A stretch of 11,473 nt of DNA from an uncultured Methanosarcinaceae archaeon (GCA_963833425.1 CAWHXP010000001.1:1-11473); one strand, 5' to 3'; positions 1 to 11,473 are shown, counted from the first letter of the stretch. Notes: a model not told the origin generated them from the sequence alone. A program made the numbers and translations.

Positions 1-286
1 CTCTAGGACTTTTACCACGTTCACGGATTGATGTTGTTATCATTCCCAAATCTACCAATTCGTGCAGAGCTCTTGTGAAAGATCTTTTATTGACACCAAA
101 AGTATCCTTTGCTTTCGAACTGGAAATAACAAGATCTTTTTTCGTTTGTTTTAAACCTTTTACGTACCAGATATACAAAGCTAATTTAGTAGCATTTACG
201 TTACCTTGTAGCAGTAAAGCTTTCTGAATCCAAGGAAGTGGAGTATTGGGGATAAAATGACATTTTAATTTTTTATTAATTGTCAT
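1..286 (-). CDS. Small winged-helix DNA-binding protein, partial (runs off window); missed by the ORF track
   Basis: Hand translation from ATG at 286 gives an open frame to the edge: MTINKKLKCHFIPNTPLPWIQKALLLQGNVNATKLALYIWYVKGLKQTKKDLVISSSKAKDTFGVNKRSFTRALHELVDLGMITTSIRERGKSPR. The FGVNKRSFTRALHELVDLGMI segment fits a wHTH recognition helix plus wing. Confidence 0.75.
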   Translation of the reverse strand, partial: MTINKKLKCHFIPNTPLPWIQKALLLQGNVNATKLALYIWYVKGLKQTKKDLVISSSKAKDTFGVNKRSFTRALHELVDLGMITTSIRERGKSPR

Positions 287-347
287 ATTATTTACCTATA
301 TAATATAAAATACTAAAAAAATCTAAAAATAATTAATAGAACGGAGT

Positions 348-408
348 AGAATCCATGTCTATTTAAATAGTCACAGATTCCGATGTAAATAGTCATAAAT
401 TCCTATGT
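348..408. repeat. Iteron-like cluster: two tandem 22-bp imperfect direct repeats plus one inverted copy
   Basis: TAAATAGTCACAGATTCCGATG (364-385) and TAAATAGTCATAAATTCCTATG (386-407) match at 19/22. Positions 348-365 are an inverted copy of the first 18 nt (14/18), creating the palindrome CTATTTAAATAG (359-370). An AT-rich tract (about 262-340) lies immediately to the left. Confidence 0.75.
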
Positions 409-416
409 TGTTTTTA

Positions 417-1121
417 TCAAGCGTCCGAAATTTCAGCTTTAATTTCTTGTATAATTCTTAGGATCTTTTTCCAAGTCTCAACTCCCCTAAGATCAGAATA
501 TCTATCAGGATATTTAATGACATTAGCTTCCGTTTTAATGGAATTACCAGACCCCAAAACTATGGAAGACGCTTTGGTCATTAATTTTTGCGCTTTCAAA
601 ATAATCTCAGCGGCTTCTTCCTCATAACACTCGATAAGAATTGCGTCATGGATAGGAGCAATGAGTTTGATATTATTCTCGACAAGAAGAATGCAAGCGA
701 CTCTGAGAATTTCCGCACCTGTAGCTTGACAAGGGAAATTTTTGATTGTTCTTCCTTCTTTCTTCTCTCCGCCAAAGATGTGCATTTGCCACCCAAAACA
801 GGTAGTGATCCTTCTAAAAAAGAGTGGTATCCAGGACATGATCACACCAAGCCCAATACTTTTGGTAAACTCCTTGTGGTGCCTTAGTAGTTCTTTGGCG
901 TAAGGAGTTGATTTGCCTATACGCAAAGCCAGACTATCGGGACCCATACCATATTGAACCCCCAATACACAAGCTTTAAAAAGGTCTCTTGCAGCTTTAT
1001 GAGTCGATTTTGTTGCTTCCTGTGGCACTGCTCTGGCCTGTTTTGCAAACGCTAGATAAGGATCTCCTGACTCGTAGGCTGCTTTCATTTCAGGATCTTC
1101 GACAAAGCAGCTGCTATACAA
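417..1121 (-). CDS. Family A DNA polymerase, C-terminal part (fingers/palm); continuation of 1085..2167 across a frameshift near 1098
   Basis: Motif B RDLFKACVLGVQYG (R-x3-K-x7-YG), NFPCQATGAE (the N-x-P-x-Q-G element) and motif C IHDA. The genuine sequence probably begins at DPEMK (about 1097); the first 8 ORF residues are out-of-frame filler. Confidence 0.88.
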   Translation of the reverse strand: MYSSCFVEDPEMKAAYESGDPYLAFAKQARAVPQEATKSTHKAARDLFKACVLGVQYGMGPDSLALRIGKSTPYAKELLRHHKEFTKSIGLGVIMSWIPLFFRRITTCFGWQMHIFGGEKKEGRTIKNFPCQATGAEILRVACILLVENNIKLIAPIHDAILIECYEEEAAEIILKAQKLMTKASSIVLGSGNSIKTEANVIKYPDRYSDLRGVETWKKILRIIQEIKAEISDA

Positions 1122-2167
1122 AATTCTTGCTGAGAATAATCAATGTGAGCTAACACTTTGCCTTTTTCAGGTTTAATAAGACTCCTGAGCCAGACAGCAG
1201 GACCAAATATGAATTTACTTGTGCTTGGCTGATTTCTTCCAGTTTTAGAAGCAAACGGCGAAAGTAAGCATCTATTTCTATTGTCAGATCCAACAGAAAT
1301 TTCTGAAAGTTTCAATTGTCCTAAAATATACCGAAGATCTTTAAGCCCCTGTAGTTGCGGATATGAAACAACCATTTCCTTGAAAGTATCATCTTTTATT
1401 TCTAAATTTCCTTTCTCAGTCCTTGGCCAAGAGATCCCATTTTTATTCAAATACTGCTCAAACTTAGAAATCTTGAATATAGTGCCTTCGTAAACTCCAT
1501 AGAAGAGATCTATTTCCTGAATTAATTTCTCCTTAATTAAAGTCCAATTTTCCTTTAAAGCTATTAAAGTTTCAATGTCGATCGGAATTCCATTATATTC
1601 CATTATTGCTACTGCTTCCATATACTTACCGCGAAAAAGTGCTGTGCCAATGTCAAAACTGCTCTCCATTGATATTTTTTTGAATAATTTCGCTGTTTCC
1701 ATGACGTCAGACGCGCAATAATCCATAATGTAGCTTTTTTCTTTTTCAGTATAAGGAGGCCCTTGCATTATCCTTTGTCTAGTACTTTCCTTTTCTGATT
1801 CCGCTATGGCTGCGATTCCATATTGTTGACAAGCTCCCAATAGACTTTTTGAGACACCAGGCAGCCCATTTGTAATTTTTCTAAACTCCGGATACAAATC
1901 AACTACGTGAATGGGCAAAGGCCAGTTTAGAGCTAAATGACAACCCCATTCTGCAGAACTAAAATATGCAACAAATAAATCAGTTTCATCCATAGGGTAT
2001 GGTGGTTTAAGGGTAAGGGGGTTTTTTCCTTCTAACCATACTTTTTTAGTTTCCCCAGAAATAATTTCGTGCGCTACAATACACACAGGTTTCGACGTCT
2101 CTCCCGAATCAGCGATAAATTCGAAGTCTATTACAAAAATATTTTTAAAAATAGGGAGCATTTTCAC
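1085..2167 (-). CDS. Family A DNA polymerase, N-terminal part (3'-5' exonuclease, thumb, motif A); no 5'-3' exonuclease domain
   Basis: ExoI IDFEF, ExoIII YCASDV, ME-x-NGIPID, SKTGRNQPS (TGR motif), LRSLIKP and motif A DYSQQE. The GTG start overlaps the upstream stop (GTGA, 2164-2167). Confidence 0.88.
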   Translation of the reverse strand: MKMLPIFKNIFVIDFEFIADSGETSKPVCIVAHEIISGETKKVWLEGKNPLTLKPPYPMDETDLFVAYFSSAEWGCHLALNWPLPIHVVDLYPEFRKITNGLPGVSKSLLGACQQYGIAAIAESEKESTRQRIMQGPPYTEKEKSYIMDYCASDVMETAKLFKKISMESSFDIGTALFRGKYMEAVAIMEYNGIPIDIETLIALKENWTLIKEKLIQEIDLFYGVYEGTIFKISKFEQYLNKNGISWPRTEKGNLEIKDDTFKEMVVSYPQLQGLKDLRYILGQLKLSEISVGSDNRNRCLLSPFASKTGRNQPSTSKFIFGPAVWLRSLIKPEKGKVLAHIDYSQQEFCIAAALSKILK

Positions 2168-2736
2168 TGCTCCCCTCTAAGTTGCTTCAAGACTGGATGA
2201 TTTATCGAATCAATAATCTTATTTTTAAAAGCAATATTTAAAGCATCTTTTATTGTTTTTGGGTCCTTTGGCCATTTAGGTTCAGGCAACTCACCTTTTG
2301 CTAGGGATATTTCATAAGCACCTAGAGCCTTGTTAGCCTTGATCCGAACCCATTTTTTCGTGCCAATTGCGTATGATTCTCTTCGAGTTCGGTGGTATCC
2401 ATTATCTTTACCGTCTTGATCGGGGAGTGGGACATCTGAAAGGAAAAATATTTTGTGGGTATGTGTTATCAAAGTGTAGATCATTACAGGCTTTAACCTT
2501 CCAATATCCATTACGTCTGAGATCAGCTCTGGAGCTACGATATATTTTTCCTCATCCCCTTCATTCAAATCGAGAAGATACAGTGAGAAAGTCCACTCCG
2601 AGTCGTCTCTAACCCTAAAAAATTCGTATGCATTCGGCTTTCTTATTGGAATGGTAGTGATCAATTTTTCGACCATCATTCCAGCCGCAAAAGTGGGTGA
2701 CAATTTGACACTATCAAAATCGAAATCCACTCTCAT
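2164..2736 (-). CDS. Hypothetical protein translationally coupled to the polymerase; possible ssDNA-binding/replication accessory factor
   Basis: Clean 190-aa ORF with AGGAG upstream and a 4-nt overlap with the polA start. Beta-strand-like pattern with many aromatic and basic residues (TIPIRKPNAYEFFRVR, KKWVRI, PEPKWP). The SSB role is inference from context only. Confidence 0.7.
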   Translation of the reverse strand: MRVDFDFDSVKLSPTFAAGMMVEKLITTIPIRKPNAYEFFRVRDDSEWTFSLYLLDLNEGDEEKYIVAPELISDVMDIGRLKPVMIYTLITHTHKIFFLSDVPLPDQDGKDNGYHRTRRESYAIGTKKWVRIKANKALGAYEISLAKGELPEPKWPKDPKTIKDALNIAFKNKIIDSINHPVLKQLRGEQ

Positions 2737-2770
2737 GGTCTCCTGAAATCTTTCGGATTATGGTTTTTAG

Positions 2771-2932
2771 TCATTCTTTGTTGCCACCTGCAATTTGTAT
2801 AATTCGTTTTGCGATGACTCTTTCCAGGGGGTCAGTGCTCTTCCTCATATGTTCCAAGATGTCAGGATATTGAGAGTTTACACGCTTTGACCATTCCACA
2901 AATAATAAATTACTTTGGGTCATATTTTCCAT
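2771..2932 (-). CDS. Small hypothetical protein (53 aa), below the ORF-track cutoff
   Basis: MENMTQSNLLFVEWSKRVNSQYPDILEHMRKSTDPLERVIAKRIIQIAGGNKE*. AGGAG lies upstream (2944-2948). It fills the gap in the operon between AbrB and the 190-aa ORF and has a helical amphipathic pattern. Confidence 0.7.
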   Translation of the reverse strand: MENMTQSNLLFVEWSKRVNSQYPDILEHMRKSTDPLERVIAKRIIQIAGGNKE

Positions 2933-3158
2933 AGCCGGCACATCTCCTTAAAACGGTGGTTGTTGTCGTTGTTCCGGTCCCCTTAGAGCCTTGGTCGGAC
3001 TGAGGGACCGGGCAAATCTGTAAATTTCCGTCTTCTAATAGTTCGATTCGTACTTGATCACTTTTTTTCATTTCGTTGCTTGTGATCCACTCACTAGGTA
3101 GAGAGACAAAAAACGAACCTCTTACCTGTTGAATTTTTTTATTTTTAAATCTAAACAT
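2910..3158 (-). CDS. AbrB/MazE/SpoVT-family DNA-binding protein
   Basis: KIQQVRGSFFVSLPSEWITSNEMKKSDQVRIELLEDGNLQI matches the swapped-hairpin pattern (GS-x-x-V-x-LP-x-x-W ... D-x-V). The low-complexity C-terminal tail overlaps a hairpin and the next gene. Confidence 0.78.
   Translation of the reverse strand: MFRFKNKKIQQVRGSFFVSLPSEWITSNEMKKSDQVRIELLEDGNLQICPVPQSDQGSKGTGTTTTTTVLRRCAGYGKYDPK
2974..3011 (-). promoter_or_regulatory. GC-rich stem-loop within the AbrB gene tail, upstream of the replication genes
   Basis: CCGGTCCC (2974-2981) pairs with GGGACCGG (3004-3011), extendable by about 4 bp past a 1-nt bulge. It stands out in AT-rich surroundings. Confidence 0.45.
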
Positions 3159-3321
3159 TTTACTACCACTATTTCTTACTTAGGAAATTACATGTATAAA
3201 TATCTGAAAATGATATTCCTCAGGTTGAATATCACCTGGATATTAGAACTAAACTATATCCAGTACCCCTATAAAATGTAAAATAACAAAGCTTAAGATC
3301 CAGCAGTTTATGTAATTTCAT
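3159..3321. promoter_or_regulatory. Divergent promoter/operator region between AbrB and wHTH genes
   Basis: Minus-strand TATA-like TTTATACA (3200-3193). Inverted repeats TGATATTC-N8-GAATATCA (3211-3234) and CTGGATAT-N12-ATATCCAG (3236-3263). Confidence 0.55.
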
Positions 3322-4002
3322 ATGAATGAAGATGAAAATGAACAAAAGAGGAGAATCCGAGGCGAGCGTTTAAATAAAAACGAAGCAAAAATCGAAATTG
3401 TCAAGTACATTCTCATTAAAAATGATGTGGTATCAGGGCCAGATATAATAAAACATATTCAGAAAAAATATAATCTATTAGATGAGAACAACATTAGGTC
3501 TCACTTGAAAGGTTTAAAACAAAAAGGTTGCATCGAAATAATTCCACGAGATCCGGGGTCATATCATAAATGGAAAATTGAAAAATTAGAAACTTTGCGG
3601 AATATACGAAAACACTATCCTGAGATACAATTAAATAGATATGATCAGGCTTTAAATCTAATCCTTGAAGAGCAAATCATTAAAGGATATCCTTGTATAG
3701 ATGCTATTCATGCCAAAGAGCTTCGTATTCAGTTGTCCCATTCGATTCACTTTTTTGATAAGTGCTTGAAAAATAGCTTTAAAACCTTATACGATGATGT
3801 CGAAGATATTTACAGTCTCGGTAAACGTGCAGATTCTTATGAAAATTTCGAAAATCATGCTTATGAATTCCCTACCCAATCTCTAAGCCAGACTCAAGTC
3901 CCCTCTTATTTTTTAGACTTTCTTTGGGATATCTTCTTAAGGATGGAGAGGCATTCGTTATACCCTAATTACCGGTCAGTTAAGGACTATTATAGATTAT
4001 GA
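3322..4002 (+). CDS. N-terminal winged-helix domain protein, putative element regulator
   Basis: IVKYIL...VSGPDIIKHIQKKY...NNIRSHLKGLKQKGCIE is a wHTH pattern. Divergent from the AbrB operon. The C-terminal region is unassigned. Confidence 0.68.
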   Translation: MNEDENEQKRRIRGERLNKNEAKIEIVKYILIKNDVVSGPDIIKHIQKKYNLLDENNIRSHLKGLKQKGCIEIIPRDPGSYHKWKIEKLETLRNIRKHYPEIQLNRYDQALNLILEEQIIKGYPCIDAIHAKELRIQLSHSIHFFDKCLKNSFKTLYDDVEDIYSLGKRADSYENFENHAYEFPTQSLSQTQVPSYFLDFLWDIFLRMERHSLYPNYRSVKDYYRL

Positions 4003-4014
4003 CTAAATAGCAGA

Positions 4015-4690
4015 ACAAGTTGCCCTTCCAGTCACATTTTTTTTAAAAGGGATATATGACTCACACCAATACATTTGCTGCGTCAAAATTTTTGCGAGAC
4101 GAATAAGCTAAGTCAGCAGAAATCTCATTCATTGAGAAGCCTTCTGATGCCTGATTAATCAATTGGCTAAACTGTGGGGAGTCATTGTAATCCCATCAAT
4201 TATGATCACAGAAGCGACTGTGTTGATCTTTACACCCACACATATAAGCCTTAAGGCACTTATGTTCTTTGCTCTGTCCATGTTCCATTTCGTTGCATAT
4301 GAGGAATGTTGTTGATCTGAATCCCGTAGAATCGACGACGAAATTAGTAGCTAATCCGGCTACTGGTAATGCAGATACGTAGACCAATTTCTGTAAAATT
4401 GGAGTAATATTTAGATGTTGAAGAGTTTTGATGGCGCATTGAAATGGGTTGCGTGTTCTATTTGTCCTTTTTCAGTTGCATTCTGAAAGAGACTAAATGA
4501 TGACGGCTGGATAACTGAGAGTACACTTTCTGAATGGCACAGAATAGAGATTCAGGAATTAACAAGCTTGGCCTTCTTATTGTTTGCCTTGGTTCAGGGA
4601 TTGCCACAAATAAATCTTTCAGCAATTCATCAAATAGCTCGACTTCCACATTTTAAGCTTCGTTATGAGCTGTCTATGCTTGTGAGTCAT
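4015..4690 (-). pseudogene. Degraded, truncated DDE transposase (IS5/IS4-like)
   Basis: Fragments across several frames: EVELFDELLKDL...RRPSL...YSQLSSR, VDSTGF (first catalytic D), GVKIN, NDSPQF, EISADLAYSSRKN (second D) and YIPFKKNVTGRA. Multiple frameshifts and in-frame stops. The third acidic residue region and terminal repeats were not seen. Confidence 0.8.
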
Positions 4691-4749
4691 TTGGAATTTG
4701 AAATCAAAAGATGCAATTTTGAGTTTTGGGATCAAGCTCTACGAGAAAG

Positions 4750-5886
4750 TTATTTTCCTGCTTTGAGCATCAACTCCTTTAACTTAGAAATTTCATCAAG
4801 TTCCTGTTTTAACACATTTTTCATTTCCCGGATTTCGTTAAGATCTGCAAATTGCATATAATCGGTTTTTACGGATTCTACAGTGGATGAAACTTCCTGC
4901 GTAAGTGGCAGTCCACATTTAAAACAAAATAAAGCATTTTCTGGATTTATTTCCTTACAACGTGGGCATTTATTAACAGTAAATTTTTTGGGGGCTTCTT
5001 CAGTCTCGATTCCGTGCAATTTAAGTATAGCATTATCCACATCTCTACCTGACATATGCACATATACACTCGCCATATTACTTGATTTAGTCCAGCCTAA
5101 ATATTCTTTTAAAAGTTGTTCAGGTAATTGTTCGGCTAAATGTGTTGCTCGGGCATGTCTAAATGCATGTGGATAAACTCTTTTTGGCTGGATATCTGCT
5201 CTATTTGCTATTTTGTGTAGTTGATCTGCAAGTCCTACAAATGTGATGACTCCAAAAGGAGAATTAGTTGAACAGAATAGGTAAGCATCATGATTATTCT
5301 TTAATGGATGCGTGTCAATCCACTGTTTAAGGTAAGACGAAGCTAATACAAGTCTCACGCGGCGACTTCCTGTTTTCCCTTTCTGTATATTAAGAATTGC
5401 CCCATTCTCGTCAAAAGTCACATGTTTAAGTTGAACTGTTAGTAATTCGCCCCTTCTAGCTCCGCTTTCATAAAAAGTAGCAACTATAGCCCGATCTCTG
5501 TTACTTAGACATGAATCAATTAATTTTTCAATTTCTTCGCGAGTCAAAATATCTTCGGGGATTTTCCCATTTTTTAGCGTCCGCAATTTTATTACGGCTC
5601 CGAGTTCATGATTTATAAAAGTCAAGAATTTTTTTAAAACCGTTCGGATTTTTTGTTGTGTACCAGGCGAGTACTTAACTGCCTTACCAGCTTTGATGTA
5701 TGTATAGGCATTTATAAAATCCAGATAATCGTAAACATCGTCTGTAGTAAATTCCTTTAATTCTCGATCTCCACACCATTCTATGAACTTTATAAGTGTA
5801 TATTCAGCAGTTGCAATTGTCTCTTCCGTAAGTCCATCTGCTTGACACTTCCTTAAGTAATCTTTTAAGATCTTTGAATTATCCAT
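4750..5886 (-). CDS. Tyrosine recombinase/integrase (XerC/D-like) with C-terminal zinc ribbon
   Basis: Full catalytic set: ESGARRGEL (R), GKTG (K), HAFRH (HxxR), LGW, VYVH (Y). CPRC-x10-CFKC followed by a coiled-coil-like tail. Uninterrupted 378 aa. Confidence 0.93.
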   Translation of the reverse strand: MDNSKILKDYLRKCQADGLTEETIATAEYTLIKFIEWCGDRELKEFTTDDVYDYLDFINAYTYIKAGKAVKYSPGTQQKIRTVLKKFLTFINHELGAVIKLRTLKNGKIPEDILTREEIEKLIDSCLSNRDRAIVATFYESGARRGELLTVQLKHVTFDENGAILNIQKGKTGSRRVRLVLASSYLKQWIDTHPLKNNHDAYLFCSTNSPFGVITFVGLADQLHKIANRADIQPKRVYPHAFRHARATHLAEQLPEQLLKEYLGWTKSSNMASVYVHMSGRDVDNAILKLHGIETEEAPKKFTVNKCPRCKEINPENALFCFKCGLPLTQEVSSTVESVKTDYMQFADLNEIREMKNVLKQELDEISKLKELMLKAGK

Positions 5887-5932
5887 ACTAACTTGATGGA
5901 ATTAATCATAGATAAACAATATAGGTATTTAT

Positions 5933-5949
5933 GTTGGTTCAGAACCAAC
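5933..5949. promoter_or_regulatory. Perfect 17-bp palindrome upstream of the integrase
   Basis: GTTGGTTC-A-GAACCAAC, about 47 nt upstream of the integrase ATG and just upstream of a TATA-like TTTATCTA (5916-5909, minus strand). Confidence 0.45.
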
Positions 5950-6334
5950 GAAAAAATTTACATGATCATCATTACAGATCACATCAAACTCAAAACAATA
6001 CCTCTTGCCAATTTTAAAGCGAATATATTTCAAAATCGTTGAATATAACATTGCCTAAAAGAAATTTTTCATGATAATTCACGTAAAAAAATATAGTATC
6101 TTAGAGGATTTCGAGAAGCTCCGAAGTTTTATCACATGATTATAAGTTATATATAAGTTATTCGTGAAAATAGAGGTTTAACAAATCCTCCTTATTTTTA
6201 TAAACACAATGGTTTGAATTCTGTAATTACATTTTAATTCAAAAGCGCAGCAGAATAAAATATGAATCAGTCAGTTAATAAAGTTTCTAGGGAAAATTCA
6301 CGTACCAATGAAAGCTAAGGTATTCGACTGGAAT

Positions 6335-6347
6335 AAAAAAGTGAAAA
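6335..6347 (-). terminator. Putative oligo-T archaeal terminator after porB
   Basis: TTTTCACTTTTTT on the minus strand shortly after the porB stop. The region is AT-rich, so specificity is low. Confidence 0.35.
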
Positions 6348-6355
6348 TTTAGTTT

Positions 6356-7246
6356 TCACTTAAGATCATAGTGTTTTATATTCCAGTCTGCATTATCCTG
6401 AATTTTCTGGATTTCTTCATTACCACCTTCCATGGTGAATAGATGTTTGAATCTTCTTTGAGTTCTCAGGTACTCCTCGACTGGCCTGGGATCCTTGATC
6501 TTTCTGACCTGCGTTATTTCTCCAAATTCCATCTCATACATAGGCCATAGACCGGTTTCTACCGCGAGTTTGGCGATTTCCAAGGTCTTTGAAGTGTCAA
6601 ATCCCCAGCCTGTAGTACATGGAGCGTGGGTATGGATATATGTAGGGCCTACAATTTCTGTGGCTTTTTTTACCTTCCGGATCATGTCTCTTGGGAAGCC
6701 TATAGAGGTTGTGGCTACATACGGAGAGCCATGAGCTGCAATAATAGCTGGCATATTTTTTTTTGGCCGCGGATTTCCAAAGGAAAATTTTCCAGCTGGG
6801 CTCGTTGTGGTACTGGCATCGTATGGAGTTCCACTGCTGCGCTGGATTCCCGTGTTCATGTAGGCTTCGTTGTCCATGCATACATAGGTGAAATCGTGAC
6901 CCCGCTCAAAAGCACCTGAAATGGCACCTATTCCGATGTCCATAGTAGAGCCGTCTCCTCCAATCGCTATTACCTTGATGTCGTTCTTTTTGCCAAGGGC
7001 TTTTAAGGCAGCTTCTACACCTGATGCCACTGCACCTCCGTTTTCAAAGAGAGAGTGAATCCAGGGGATCTTCCAAGATGAAAGTGGGAAAGGCGTTGAC
7101 ATAACTTCAAGGCAGCCGGTAGGATTAACTACAATACAATTAGGACCTGCGCCTATGAGTGTGAATTTTGCAGCAAAGGCATCACAGCAGCCTGCACAAC
7201 CGCTATGCCCCGAAGAAAGATACATTTTTGGTGCAACTTTAGTCAT
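6356..7246 (-). CDS. porB: Pyruvate:ferredoxin oxidoreductase beta subunit (TPP-binding)
   Basis: [18 protein letters not shown]...[16 protein letters not shown]/Mg motif and PCTTGW. ATGA overlap with porA. Confidence 0.93.
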
Positions 7247-8451
7247 AGCAACTCCTCCTTGAGGTCCAGAAACTGGCTTTCAACCATGATTTCAGACTTG
7301 GCAGCTGTCTTGGTTCCTTCAATAACTTTTACAATGCTTTCCATACGAATGTCACGGCCTCCATGACCCAGGGTATAGCCAACTAGCGGTATGCGGACTT
7401 TACTGTTATAGAGGCAAGATTTGGTTTCGGTAAACAGGGCTCCTTCATTTGTTCCTATAGAGATATTCTTATCAAGCACAACAACTGCATGCGCATTCTG
7501 AAGCGCCTCTCTAATCTGCTCCTTAGGAAAGGGCCTAAAAGATCTGACTTTTAAGACGCCAATCTTTTCTCCTTTTGCCCTGTACTGATCCACGACATCT
7601 TTAACAGTCCCAAGAACAGAGCCCATAGCCATGATAACGATTTCAGCATCCTCAATCATGTATCCATCAACAAGTCCACCGTGAAATCTGCCGAAAACTT
7701 CTTCAAACTCCTTCGCCACGGTTTCAATTTTCGGAAGAGCTTTCTGCATTGCTTGTTCTTGCAAGTATCTGAATTCTTCGTAAGTATCAGGCGTTGCAAA
7801 GGCTCCAAAAGTCTTAGGGTCTTCCGGGTCAAGCACATTTTCGGGCTGGAAAGGCTGGAGAAAATTATCAACAAGATTCTGTTCAAGCAGTACAACGGGC
7901 TCATAAACATGCGATAGAATGAAACCATCCATGCAGACCATTCCTGGCAACATGATTTTATGATCCTCTGCAATCTTATATATTTGAGGCAGGGTATCAG
8001 ATGCTTCCTGCACATCTTCTACATAAAGCTGAATCCAGCCGGTATCTCTTTGGGCAATCGCATCCTGATGGTCATTCCATATATTTATAGGAGCACTAAC
8101 TGCCCTGTTTGCAACTGTCATTATGATTGGAAGCCTCATGCCTGAAGCGTTAAAAAGAGCCTCATGCATTAGTAAGAGCCCTTGAGAGGTTGTGGCTGAA
8201 TAGGTTCTTGCGCCTACTACTGCCGCTCCTATCAACGAAGAAATTGCCGAAAATTCTGATTCAACATTTAAATACTCACAGTTGGGTATCTCCCCGTCTG
8301 CTACGAATTGAGCCAGATTTTCAACAATGTGCGTTTGGGGAGTGATCGGATAAGCTGAGATTACGTTTGGCTGACAAATTTTTGCGGAATGGGCCACAGC
8401 ATAAGAACCTTCAACGACGATCATTTTCTCTTTAAAAGCCGGGTTGATCAT
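7243..8451 (-). CDS. porA: Pyruvate:ferredoxin oxidoreductase alpha subunit
   Basis: [22 protein letters not shown]-like [28 protein letters not shown] and RSFRPFP motifs. TAATG overlap with the porD stop. Confidence 0.93.
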
Positions 8452-8783
8452 TATTTAGCCTCCAAAATCATCCCGATTGCATCTTCCGGGCATTCATTTG
8501 CACAGATACCGCAGCCTTTGCAATAATCGTAATCGTACTCGAAAAAGCCATCATCCCTAGGTTTGACTGACATGTCAGGGCATACGATTTCACAGATTCC
8601 ACACTTGGTACACTTTTCATAATTATAAACAGGTCGAAAATTCCTCCAGCCTCCGGTTTTGTTTTTAAGGGTCGAACCAGGTTTACAGACACTGCAGCAT
8701 GTGATTTCCGATTCTCTCGTTTCATGATTCTTTTTTAAGATTTCCGGACATATTTTGCTGTCTTGATCAGCTTCAGTAGTCAT
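8451..8783 (-). CDS. porD: Pyruvate:ferredoxin oxidoreductase delta subunit (2x[4Fe-4S]); in this sequence reads in frame with the porC C-terminus
   Basis: NKTGGWRNFRP, CTKCGICEIVCP and YDYCKGCGICANECP. Internal ATG at 8783 with AAGGA just upstream. Confidence 0.85.
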   Translation of the reverse strand: MTTEADQDSKICPEILKKNHETRESEITCCSVCKPGSTLKNKTGGWRNFRPVYNYEKCTKCGICEIVCPDMSVKPRDDGFFEYDYDYCKGCGICANECPEDAIGMILEAK

Positions 8784-9325
8784 AATCCTTACCCTAATGA
8801 GATCATAAGCTTTTTGAATCGCCTCTGCATTCTTTTCTCCAATTTTTCCTGGAAAACGAGCCTTTATTGCATGATGGATAGAGTCTACTTTTATTTCTTC
8901 AGTTGCGCCCGCAAAAGCTCCAAGGAGGACAGTGTTTACTATGGGATGACCTATAATATCCATTGCCACCTTCGTAGCATCCACGGTCATAACTTTAGCA
9001 GTTGTATTAATTTTCAAACTTTCCGGTTTTTCTGTAGTGTTGACAATAATTACTCCATCTTCTTTTATCCCTTTTGCAACGTTAACAGTTTCAAGGAGGG
9101 TTGATCCTGAACAATAACATAATCAGGAGTGTATATCTGGCTTCGGAGCCTGATTGGATTGTTACTTATCCTGGTAAATGCTTGTACAGGAGCACCTCTG
9201 CGCTCTACCCCAAAAGCAGGAAAGGCCTGGCTAAATTTCCCGTCTTTAAAAGCTGCGACGGAAAGCATTTCAGCCGCGGTGACAGAACCTTGACCTCCTC
9301 GACCATGTATTCTGATTTCCTTCAT
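8784..9325 (-). CDS. porC: Pyruvate:ferredoxin oxidoreductase gamma subunit, frameshifted near 9103
   Basis: [29 protein letters not shown] and [10 protein letters not shown]. Restoring one base at GAT-CA-ACC gives ...[25 protein letters not shown], joining the 8451..9017 frame (...NTVLLGAFA...). RBS AAGGAG upstream. Confidence 0.88.
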
Positions 9326-9433
9326 ATGAATTCTCCTTATTAATCGCTTATTCGGATGTCTTTTGTAACTTTATAGAATGCAGATTTAAAAAAATAAATT
9401 GAAAATTATAGTTCAATTGTTTATGAAAATAAT

Positions 9434-9646
9434 AGCCTGATTGGATTGTTGCTGATCCTGATAAATGTATATCGGAGCATCTCTGCGCTCTACCCCTCAA
9501 GTAGGAAAGACCTAAATAGATTTCCTATCTTTAAAAACCGCGACGAAAAGCGTCTCAGCCGCGGTGACAAATCCTTGACCTCCTCGACCACGTATTCTGA
9601 TTTCCTTCATACGAATTCTCCTTCTTGAATCGCTTATTTGGATGTC
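9434..9646 (-). pseudogene. porC: Degenerate tandem duplicate of the porC 5' end and its leader
   Basis: Aligns end to end with 9147-9360. From ATG 9610 it reads MKEIRIRGRGGQGFVTAAETLFVAVFKDRKSI*, with stops at 9514-9512 and 9499-9497 and a 2-nt deletion further on. RBS AAGGAG retained. Confidence 0.9.
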
Positions 9647-10240
9647 ATTCATAACTATTGATTTATCAGAAACAATTTAAGCATCATACTATTTTTAGGC
9701 ACCACTGCGATATTCGCTACAAGCTCAAAGAATTTAAAACTTAGATTGTTAACTGTGAAATTGTTAATTCATTTCTATTCATTTTTTGATTGATTATAGA
9801 GTAGTTCGATAAAAAGATAATTTCATAAGTTCTGTATCTTATTTATGGGCCTTGTGATGAAACTGTGGAGTTTATCGCGATACTCTTTAGTCAATTTTTA
9901 ATGGATTAATAGTGAAGTTTGGTGATCTAAAAGAATAGAAATAAATCTCCGAACTATCAATCTGGAAACATTCGTATGACTTATTACAATGATCAATAAA
10001 ACCAATCTAGTCATAATTATGTATTCATGCCTTTTGTGCCCAATAGCTCATGGATAATAATGTAAGTTATTATTAGGTTTTCGGTGGGATTAGATAATTT
10101 TATATATATATATTCCCTATTTTATATTTTATTCTGAATGTATTAATCTTCACACTCTTCAAATTTAACTTGTCCTAATAGTTATGTTTTTACTGGATTT
10201 GATTATAAACTAATCTTACTTTTTTAAAAAAATAAATAGT

Positions 10241-11213
10241 TCAATCCTTTTCCTTAAAGGAGCTCCTTATCAGATCAATTATGGTTTTTCCTTCTTTTAG
10301 ACCATTAATCTTCTCCCTAATCTTTCGCGCGCTATGAAACCCTTTTGTAAACCAATGAGCATGCATTCTCAGATTTTGAGAAGATAATAGATTATGTTCA
10401 TCTAGAAGAGTGATATAAGATTCAAAATCTTCAAGCTGTCTAGCTTGCCTGTCCAGTTCCAGCTTTTCCCCGGTTTCCAGATAATACCTAATTCTTCTGA
10501 ATATGAACGGATTTCCCATCGCAGCACGCCCTATCATAAGTCCATCACAGCCTGTGAACTCAATAGTATTTTCTGCAGACTCTTCGTCTTTTATATCACC
10601 GTTTGCAATCACTGGAATTGAAATTTCGCGTTTTACTGCTCTGATAGCTACAAGGTCCGAGCTTCCGGAGTACATCTGCTTTGCCTTCCTGCCATGCACT
10701 GTTATGGCAAGAGCTCCTGCATTTTCGATTAGTTGCGCGATTTCAAGGGTCTTTTCACCTCTTTCCAAAATCCGGATTTTTACAGTTACAGGTGTTTTCA
10801 GGGCATATGTCAGTTCCGAGACTATTTCATAAACAAGCTTTGGAGATTTGAGAAGAGTAGAACCACCCCCTGCCCCTATAACGCATTGTACAGGGCAACC
10901 CATATTTATATCGATGACTTCAGGCCTGTACGCACTTTCAACAAAGATGGCAGCTTCCCGCAGCTTCTCAGTTGAGTTCCCAACAAGCTGAACTCCAAAA
11001 GGCCGGTCATAGGGTGAGCTCAGTCCTTTAAGAAGGGATTTCCGATTTTTGCTGAGCAGAGCATCTGAGTTGATCATTTCGGTGTACGTTACGTCAGCTC
11101 CATGCTGCCGGCATAGCAACCTGAAAGCTAGATTTGTGACTCCTGCCATGGGTGCAAGAAAAAGGTTTCCAGAAGTTGTCGAGCTGACCTATTTTTAATT
11201 TATTGAGCTTCAT
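10241..11213 (-). CDS. dus: tRNA-dihydrouridine synthase (Dus/NifR3 family); probable true start at 11213 with a frameshift near 11180-11187
   Basis: TEMI, DINMGCP (catalytic Cys), TVKIR, TVHGR, IANGDI and MIGRA. In frame upstream of the track's start (11149) is GNLFLAPMAG, the N-terminal Dus motif, but that frame is closed by TAG. MKLNKLKIG from ATG 11213 is in a different frame. Confidence 0.88.
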
Positions 11214-11473
11214 TTTGATACTATTCAAATTACTTTTTTTACAGCTATTTTATGAATTCAGATCTACTGTGATTTGTTAAAACTCAAATAGATTTCGCAC
11301 AATTATTTGAAAAATATAAGAATTTATAAATATCGTCATAAAATCTGGGACTAAAATTGATAAGCTAGAAGGACTTTAGATGCAAAAGAGGAATAAAATA
11401 ATCGAATCGAATGATTGTGAAAACTGGTATCTATATTATTAATTCTGAAAGTTGAGTAAAATTACTATCTTTT

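Follow-up and report, generated by a model that had tools for sequence, protein, structure and literature searches.

What a family A DNA polymerase does beside an intact tyrosine integrase in the genome of a methanogen is the question raised by this locus. Archaea replicate with family B and family D polymerases, and the replication proteins known from archaeal mobile elements are, to our knowledge, PolB, primase-polymerases, MCM or Rep. The stretch analyzed here, called the window, is an entire contig of 11,473 nt (CAWHXP010000001.1:1-11473) from an uncultured Methanosarcinaceae archaeon (GCA_963833425.1). The genome measures 4.07 Mb in 21 contigs, has 36% G+C and is ~80% complete; its closest relatives are Methanosarcina and Methanosarcinaceae genomes. 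Positions 1 to ~6140 probably represent most of an integrated mobile element of ~7.5 kb, carrying a helicase-less replication module composed of the polymerase (PolA) and a single-stranded DNA-binding (SSB) partner. How this element would be replicated, primed and packaged is what we infer below. The element is a variation on two things already known, polymerase-encoding integrative elements on the one hand and pairs of PolA and SSB on the other, and is not a new category. What is new is the cassette: a 190-aa protein (p190), PolA, a repeat cluster and a winged helix-turn-helix (wHTH) gene form a unit that is conserved across bacteria and archaea.

A conserved polymerase cassette

The cassette was followed in a scan of one genome per prokaryotic species, in which at least 532 stretches encode a relative of PolA; the best 80 were examined. 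These fetched loci are given L-numbers, while C1, C5, C6, C7, C8, C18 and C21 are contigs of the source genome. In 74 of the 80 loci the gene directly upstream of PolA encodes a p190 homologue, and in 66 a member of the wHTH family lies downstream, in bacteria as well as in archaea. The three-gene set, which an earlier note on this DNA had likened to bacterial islands, does co-occur. The hosts include Pseudomonadota, Planctomycetota, Acidobacteriota, Actinomycetota, Bacillota and others, and on the archaeal side Methanosarcinaceae, Methanoregula and Thermoplasmatota. A bacterial tyrosine-integrase family is present in 42 of the loci and an archaeal one in five; PHROG scans revealed further integrases and some serine recombinases downstream of the cassette. 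In many bacterial loci, the whole element consists of an integrase, the cassette and one or two small genes, as in L017, where the distance from the tRNA gene through the wHTH gene is ~5.2 kb. The integrase directly adjoins a tRNA or tmRNA gene in 15 bacterial loci and in none of the 11 archaeal loci scanned. The conserved neighbor clusters of the 80 loci include no helicase family. Terminal repeats, as a sign of circularity, were looked for by exact matching on the fetched loci, many of which are cut from longer contigs, and none was found.

Related proteins are abundant. The p190 profile matches 5,676 representatives of 50%-identity clusters among 1.84 billion (4,181 at E 1e-10 or better), and the best 150 matches are all stand-alone proteins of 183-339 aa. 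PolA has at least 5,747 homologues at E 0.001 or better among 8,000 scored candidates. The element family is apparently very large, present in both domains and unnamed. No paper describing the p190-PolA-wHTH cassette or such an archaeal element was found in a literature search that left out subscription journals and bioRxiv supplements. Both PolA and p190 are under purifying selection: dN amounts to 0.16-0.39 with saturated dS between diverged elements, and dN/dS to 0.12-0.33 between close copies.

A quick maximum-likelihood tree was built from 76 PolAs. The 10 archaeal rows (four from Thermoplasmatota, four from Methanosarcinaceae/Methanoregula and two from the source genome) are split from the 66 bacterial ones by a branch with an SH-aLRT of 98, and the labels cluster by phylum, with 15 changes versus 39 in shuffles. 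The tree fits a single crossing between the domains. As it is unrooted, the direction of transfer cannot be read from it, and the archaeal grouping may be inflated because all archaeal rows have a deviant composition. The inter-domain transfer suggested in the earlier note agrees with the shared cassette and with this tree. Among the loci, L020 and L021 encode identical PolA proteins, although their metagenome-assembled genomes (MAGs), from one study series, are labelled Nitrosomonadales and Verrucomicrobiota; either the binning is wrong or the gene was transferred very recently.

Within the window, the gene order that had been read from the sequence (AbrB, a 53-aa open reading frame (ORF), the 190-aa ORF, PolA, repeats and wHTH) is present on the minus strand, and the intact tyrosine integrase and the archaeal host por genes were confirmed in the same stretch. 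The features are as follows.

2-286, minus strand: wHTH gene, first 95 of 106 codons, the ORF being cut by the end of the contig; putative initiator or regulator
349-404, no strand: iteron-like cluster with direct 22-nt copies at 361-382 and 383-404 and an inverted copy at 349-368; candidate origin or operator
2167-417, minus strand: family A polymerase in two frames, 2167-1085 and 1121-417 (360 and 234 aa), with an out-of-frame stretch at 873-821
2736-2164, minus strand: p190, 190-aa ORF with an OB-fold model; predicted PolA partner and candidate single-stranded DNA-binding subunit
2941-2771, minus strand: conserved small ORF of 56 aa if started at GTG and of 53 aa if started at the first ATG; backbone gene
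3158-2910, minus strand: AbrB/MazE-type (SpoVT-AbrB fold) DNA-binding protein (Pfam PF04014, E 2.3e-6); first gene of the leftward operon
3322-4002, plus strand: 226-aa winged-helix protein, divergent from the AbrB operon; candidate master regulator
5886-4750, minus strand: tyrosine integrase, 378 aa, intact, with a C-terminal zinc ribbon (Phage_integrase, E 1.2e-21)
5887-6140, no strand: integrase-proximal end region, homologous among element copies
From 6356: host genes, por subunits and Dus

PolA matches the Pfam family DNA_pol_A (PF00476, E 1.2e-14), phrog_17 (E 3e-23 and 5e-16) and also NCBIfam. Among its homologues are sequences named from Methanosarcina barkeri, M. mazei, Methanolobus, Methanosalsum, Methanocalculus and Methanoregula; those of Bacillus, Marinobacterium and further bacteria have an identity of ~50%. 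The intact copy, which is found uninterrupted on the twin contig C18 (584 aa, C18:4529-6283), possesses a complete 3'-5' exonuclease domain and lacks the 5'-3' exonuclease domain. In an alignment of 12 sequences, D14/E16, Y150/D154, D343/Q346-E348 and H508/D509 are invariant or nearly so. Position 3 of motif B is a leucine in this alignment, L402 being invariant within K398..L402..Q405 Y406 G407. Compared by eye, the first 400 aa of the I. dechloratans CHEAP reference (A0A643FCZ2) share long near-identical stretches with PolA at the exonuclease motifs, the TGR region and motif A. Judged by its sequence, PolA is a member of the CHEAP subfamily.

According to Czernecki et al. 2023 (PMC10201439), CHEAP is cluster #15 of the family A polymerases, found mainly in Proteobacteria and in some Methanomicrobia. 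The same text describes CHEAPs as retaining every motif of the exonuclease and the polymerase, and having a leucine at motif B position 3, as the subfamily closest to the CCPols of staphylococcal elements, and reports that the enzyme of I. dechloratans is highly active both as a polymerase and as an exonuclease. Because CHEAP in Methanomicrobia was published in 2023, family A polymerases in methanogens are not new in themselves. PolA-SSB primases of mobile elements are also known in Bacillota, as stated in Rice 2023 (PMC10061031), and marine phage satellites with COG0749 polymerases have been recorded (PMC9618062). The premise that a PolA-based element would be a novelty is weakened by these papers, and it is the cassette that remains new.

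p190 has no match among Pfam, NCBIfam, PHROG or PADLOC families. Its stop overlaps the start of PolA. The AlphaFold2 (AF2) model of p190 (pLDDT 92.6, pTM 0.82) shows a beta-barrel with helices. Both Foldseek and an exhaustive aligner place the cores of RB69 and T4 gp32 on top (Z 4.6, root-mean-square deviation 4.3-4.4, 132-134 residues aligned), although values of Z <5 are weak and can reflect a common arrangement only. BRCA2 OB folds, HIN domains, PRD1 P12, RPA and CST rank below gp32. Nothing was obtained at E 0.001 or better in the Foldseek search, a profile search against PDB sequences gave 0 matches, and Atlas scores were <0.9 and uninformative. With such weak structural scores, p190 is supported as an OB fold and not as a member of a family.

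A complex of PolA and p190 was also predicted. It received a score of 0.61, compared to 0.00 for the best of three controls; the score is a model confidence, not a measurement. A value of 0.61 is attained by 116 of 157 solved complexes and by 2 of 215 mismatched pairs, counts that hold only roughly here because our own alignments were used for the prediction. At least 85% of the contacts agree between the runs, and the partner pLDDT is at least 76. The predicted contact places residues 4-18 of p190, a conserved N-terminal peptide, on PolA residues 172-181, 355-357, 441-460 and 479-498. p190 is thus predicted to dock on PolA via its N-terminal peptide. The role of accessory or SSB protein, proposed for this ORF beforehand, is in agreement with the OB-fold model, the weak gp32-type matches and the predicted binding.

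In the window, PolA and the wHTH gene are separated by a spacer of 130 nt, in which a 22-nt repeat stands in two direct copies and one inverted copy. On C18 the direct copies number three; compared with it, the window is 22 nt short at position 396. The corresponding spacer also carries repeats in L009 (two), L011 (five), L080 (three) and L010 (two to three). Among these relatives the period is 21-23 nt, and the repeat sequences are unrelated to one another. In 63 loci, 28 locus-spacing matches fall at 21-24 nt, compared to one in shuffles. Such a pattern in the sequences is that of iterons, or of an operator, co-evolving with a binding protein. The layout is also of the iteron type, with tandem repeats about two helical turns apart that adjoin a candidate initiator gene. 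The cluster, earlier proposed as an origin, recurs in the relatives and stands as an iteron-like candidate. The 106-aa wHTH protein is a candidate for the repeat-binding initiator or regulator. Apart from generic winged-helix similarity, only phrog_186 'DnaD-like helicase loader' was matched (E 0.002).

Extent, backbone and copies of the element

The element is cut at the left end of the window and is continued by C18, the start of which is 98.5% identical to window positions 1-6698. On C18, the 106-aa wHTH gene (6436-6756) is followed by a 96-aa ORF and a 140-aa ORF (7183-7605) resembling a terminase small subunit (TerS) gene. High-identity homology between C18 and C21 stops just after the wHTH gene. 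On the right side, homology among the copies runs ~250 nt beyond the integrase start, which sets the boundary at ~6140. The boundaries were derived from this loss of homology because att repeats were not detected: when the flanks of C18, L009 and the C21/window copies were compared by short-word BLAST, only matches of 10-13 nt, at chance level, resulted. From these limits, the element would be about 7.5 kb long. Extension to the left, as recommended in the earlier note, thus provided the terS-like gene, and neither an att repeat nor a helicase or primase.

The backbone around the cassette is shared with other elements. The small ORF has homologues in the corresponding position of L009 (E 9e-21) and of three further elements in this genome, and AbrB paralogues are present in other elements of the genome as well. 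The integrase matches an archaeal XerA model (E 2e-34, under the cut-off of that model) and has paralogues of 90-95% identity in C21 and C8. The 226-aa wHTH protein matches LexA_DNA_bind (E 9e-4, below cut-off) and phrog_1077 'regulator' (E 0.0017); its N-terminal 170 aa are homologous to proteins of 396-406 aa at the same place in L009 and C8. Region 4003-4749 was considered as the decayed C-terminal half of such a longer regulator, which is not supported, as tblastn with the 396-aa and 406-aa homologues matched 3349-3846 only. Scans of the window for tRNA genes and Rfam families gave no match.

A chimeric contig had been named as a possible refutation of the link between PolA, the integrase and por. 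The integrase-to-PolA segment is linked to por on C1 and C18 of the same assembly, and in L009, which comes from a different Methanosarcinaceae MAG, the integrase and PolA are again linked, there elsewhere in the chromosome, between what we take to be an aroA-like gene, judged from its N-terminal sequence, and nifH-like genes. These linkages show that the element is not an assembly chimera. The refuting conditions named in the earlier note were each checked, and none applied. Recurrence of the gene order on C18, on a further contig of the source genome and in different genomes is more than chance.

At least five further copies or remnants reside in the genome (C18, C21, C5, C7 and C8). The C21 copy is 93.6% identical and frameshifted, the C5 cassette is 53% identical and intact, C7 holds a truncated piece and C8 a decayed copy. 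p190 is encoded in 11 of 177 Methanosarcinaceae species genomes, with 7 of 58 in the same genus and up to seven matches per genome. Sister elements in the source genome have the same backbone (integrase, wHTH regulator, AbrB, small ORF and terS-like gene) with other replication modules. In these, a primase-helicase (phrog_1829, E 1e-60; DUF3987) is followed by a different, fragmented PolA, which indicates that the cassette sits in the replication slot. A bacterial-type cassette on a methanogen backbone, as had been supposed, is therefore a fitting description, since this backbone carries other modules in the same genome.

One such sister element, L093 (C8:399418-412158), has a frameshifted integrase, the 396-aa wHTH protein, AbrB, the small ORF and the terS-like gene. 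Its replication genes encode a 791-aa primase-helicase (DUF3987, NrS-1 polymerase HBD) and a family A polymerase in three pieces, and an MT-A70/ParB-like methyltransferase is also present.

The integrase-side end of the element falls within a repeat-rich spacer (5930-6340), in which a 40-aa ORF has no Pfam match. Repeats of ~90-250 nt from this spacer are also found at more than 40 places in the genome, with 70-87% identity. In the host por genes, the gamma subunit is split: ORF 9325-9065 corresponds to PF01558 positions 1-70, and ORF 9017-8451 to positions 107-173 fused to a ferredoxin-type delta part. A second porG 5' end lies upstream of the por operon (9434-9656, 85% identical to 9147-9370). 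There, a 46-aa ORF (9652-9512) resembles the start of the 86-aa ORF. Just past the element on C18, at positions 9400-11300, many frames are occupied by long ORFs that overlap one another and have a high content of Arg, Gly and Ala. High-G+C DNA would look like this, in a genome of 36% G+C, and the segment may be foreign or misassembled.

A proposed replicon and its rival explanations

In the proposed cycle, the integrase would excise the element as a circle. The wHTH protein would bind the iterons beside its own gene and mark or open the origin. p190 would coat the exposed single strand while being tethered to PolA by the conserved N-terminal peptide, as predicted by the complex model. PolA would then copy the element, either by self-priming like the CcPol-MP PolA-SSB primases or by elongating a primer supplied by the host or a nick. 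Since no helicase is encoded, strand displacement or rolling circle would be the mode of synthesis. Were the cassette self-priming, it would be a minimal three-protein replicon, of interest for replication biology and as a tool.

A number of observations weigh against such a replicon. Family scans of the element's ORFs revealed neither a helicase nor a recognizable primase. The downstream wHTH family has generic Pfam matches only (GntR, MarR and Crp) and none to a Rep-type initiator, and in a strict iteron test the best repeat spacing lies at 21-25 nt in only 20 of 63 loci. The low Z values of p190, the nature of the complex score and the lack of att repeats, all described above, belong here as well. 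No close PolA homologue was found in 50,697 phage records (best 28.7% identity) or in 72,556 plasmid records (best ~25% identity), and the family is thus unseen as a free replicon in sequenced isolates. In the window, PolA differs from that of C18 by three indels (-1 at 1100, -1 at 873 and -2 at 821). Public runs are another point: 21 are listed, each holding a share of at most 10% and kept as contigs, and in the contigs of the four examined, relatives of the por genes and of the integrase are present with the cassette sparsely covered; the sequence joints listed for these metagenomes have short sides and were disregarded. Finally, CHEAPs are regarded as cellular auxiliary polymerases with 'no known partners' by Czernecki et al. 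(PMC10201439), and PADLOC gives a match of PolA to RTasPolA, a model associated with defense-associated reverse transcriptases (E 5.9e-30).

The rival explanation that survives best refines the replicon and does not exclude it. The element would then be a satellite of a head-tailed archaeal virus, similar to the phage-inducible chromosomal islands (PICIs) or to the VEIMEs of marine bacteria. It would remain integrated until induced by a helper virus, form concatemers by means of its own PolA cassette and be packaged into helper capsids through the TerS-like protein. We consider this possible and put it forward tentatively. The element shows satellite-type traits (an integrase, its own replication module and no capsid genes found in family scans), and its layout mirrors that of PICIs. 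Residues 1-126 of the 140-aa ORF on C18 match phrog_4102 'terminase small subunit' (E 4.9e-25), and the same gene ends the related elements in C21, L009 and C8, with 65-86% protein identity. The genome contains ~30 loci of this type over 13 contigs, and matches to the large terminase subunit (TerL; PF03354, PF03237) and to the HK97 capsid (PF05065) were absent from its 80% complete sequence. Several of these terS-like genes end small elements with other replication genes, e.g., C5:156033-160189.

The TerS label is, on the other hand, derived from one PHROG family. Pfam and PDB profile searches gave no relevant match, the AF2 model is unusable (pLDDT 50.8), and the Atlas neighbors, which are leads only, include transposase-type HTH clusters. 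Among bacteria, the IMG/VR element L095 has the order integrase, p190, PolA and wHTH followed by two TerS genes (phrog_83), and L071 also has a TerS match. The downstream ORFs of the 80 loci, however, gave TerS matches only in L009, L051 (with TerL), L071 and, weakly, L074, and no helper virus was identified. The marine elements offer a parallel: in Eppley et al. 2022 (PMC9618062), 117 VEIMEs carry a COG0749 polymerase, and 78 of these fall in module 6, where TerS genes occur as well.

Some relatives lie in larger surroundings. IMG/VR contains 17 contigs with close PolA relatives, 12 of which carry p190. In L051, on a Bryobacterales chromosome, TerS and TerL genes come after the cassette, and in L018 (Neobacillus mesonae) a head maturation protease gene is situated ~1.4 kb downstream of PolA, so that larger elements of prophage type may make use of the cassette too. 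L100 is a 60-kb phage-like IMG/VR contig with genes for a large terminase, a tail fiber, sigma factors and endonuclease VII. Its PolA relative (657 aa, 39% identity) has no p190 homologue beside it.

The broadest proposal is a family of PICI-like satellites of head-tailed archaeal viruses in Methanosarcinaceae, with the integrase, divergent regulators and terminal TerS-like gene as a common backbone. Some of them would replicate with the helicase-less cassette, in which a proofreading PolA tethered to the gp32-like p190 would do both the priming and the copying from an iteron origin. Taken in full, this proposal is unlikely. If true, it would provide the first satellites of tailed viruses in Archaea, and a replicon type built on PolA would be common to thousands of small integrative elements in both prokaryotic domains. 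Before the work of Zhou et al. 2025, pSSVi and pSSVx were, by their statement, the only archaeal satellites known. A function of the terS-like gene in packaging would by itself raise the question of virus satellites in methanogens.

Decidedly improbable is the possibility that the cassette is cargo, such as an auxiliary repair polymerase or an anti-virus system in which p190 and the wHTH protein serve as sensor or regulator. The naming of CHEAPs as cellular and partnerless would suit this role, as would an element without helicase or primase and a family unseen in sequenced plasmids and phages. However, the cassette and an integrase are essentially the whole element in many bacterial loci, including L017, with no further replication or cargo genes left. 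The RTasPolA match would suit cargo too, but it covers the generic polymerase domain only. The iterons adjoining the wHTH gene and the position of the cassette in the slot that a primase-helicase module fills in sister elements also argue against cargo.

The state of the window copy has to be separated from the nature of the element. Positions ~1100-5500 are identical to C18, and the sequences diverge in 1-1100, with 60 substitutions. The indels break PolA, and the stretch they replace includes the invariant W439 and W441. In porG, one C at 9103 is absent from the window and present in C6 and in contigs from the four public runs, and single-base differences split the 226-aa wHTH gene in C6. 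Both cases make single-base indel errors plausible in the assembly, and the PolA frameshift of the window copy may be a real defect or an assembly error. PolA is also split in L009:6998-8743 and in C21:21838-22906, each time at another position, which fits frequent element decay as well as long-read indel errors.

Most improbable is the view that the feature in the window is a defunct remnant or a product of faulty assembly, its contig being a redundant, chimeric or error-bearing path through a repeat and its PolA a pseudogene. In favor of this view, the window is a short stand-alone contig overlapping C18 and C6 (window 3705-11473 is 99.8% identical to the start of the latter), with the missing porG base and with divergence from C18 that coincides with the three indels, but the intact PolA in the same order in C18, the second intact cassette in C5 and the same layout in L009 make the element real whatever the state of this copy.

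Comparison with known systems

The proposed helicase-less replicon can be compared to five kinds of systems. PICIs have an integrase, divergent regulators, a replication module with an origin and a terS gene near the far end, and no capsid genes. The present element has the same order of integrase, divergent regulators, replication module and terS, the assignment of the latter being weak. PICIs are bacterial, use a primase-helicase Rep and are about twice as long.

VEIMEs are virion-packaged integrative elements of marine bacteria for which packaging was demonstrated, as described by Eppley et al. (PMC9618062). They share the small size, the integrase, the lack of capsid genes and, in 117 of them, a COG0749 polymerase. 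In contrast, they are reported from bacteria only, and the present element is known from its genes, with packaging being a proposal. Pipolins are likewise integrative elements with their own DNA polymerase (PMC11551731). Their enzyme is a primer-independent family B polymerase (piPolB) accompanied by other accessory genes, whereas the polymerase belongs to family A here.

The likeness to CHEAP itself lies in the length of ~580 aa, the combination of 3'-5' exonuclease and polymerase, the lack of a 5'-3' exonuclease and the leucine at motif B position 3. The difference is the setting, as PolA is found here in a cassette with a putative OB-fold partner, iteron-like repeats and a wHTH gene, mostly beside an integrase.

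A further parallel would be CcPol-MP of SCCmec, which Bebel is said to have described in 2020 (PMC7581432) as a PolA-SSB primase. In both systems, a family A polymerase is encoded next to a small protein with an OB fold, predicted by modeling in our case, in a mobile element with an adjoining site-specific recombinase. The exonuclease domain is truncated in CcPol-MP and complete here. The OB protein is larger here (190 aa) and encoded upstream of the polymerase, whereas it is encoded downstream in CcPol-MP systems. The predicted contact is made by the N-terminal peptide of p190 on the polymerase domain, while it involves the N-terminal region of the polymerase in CcPol-MP. The operon of CcPol-MP includes a helicase gene, in contrast to this element, in which none was found. 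The recombinase is of the tyrosine type here and of the serine type with CcPol-MP, and the hosts here include archaea. The element thereby links CHEAP, so far called cellular and partnerless, with the PolA-SSB primases known only from Bacillota, and, on the present evidence, small integrative elements of both domains seem to form one very large family.

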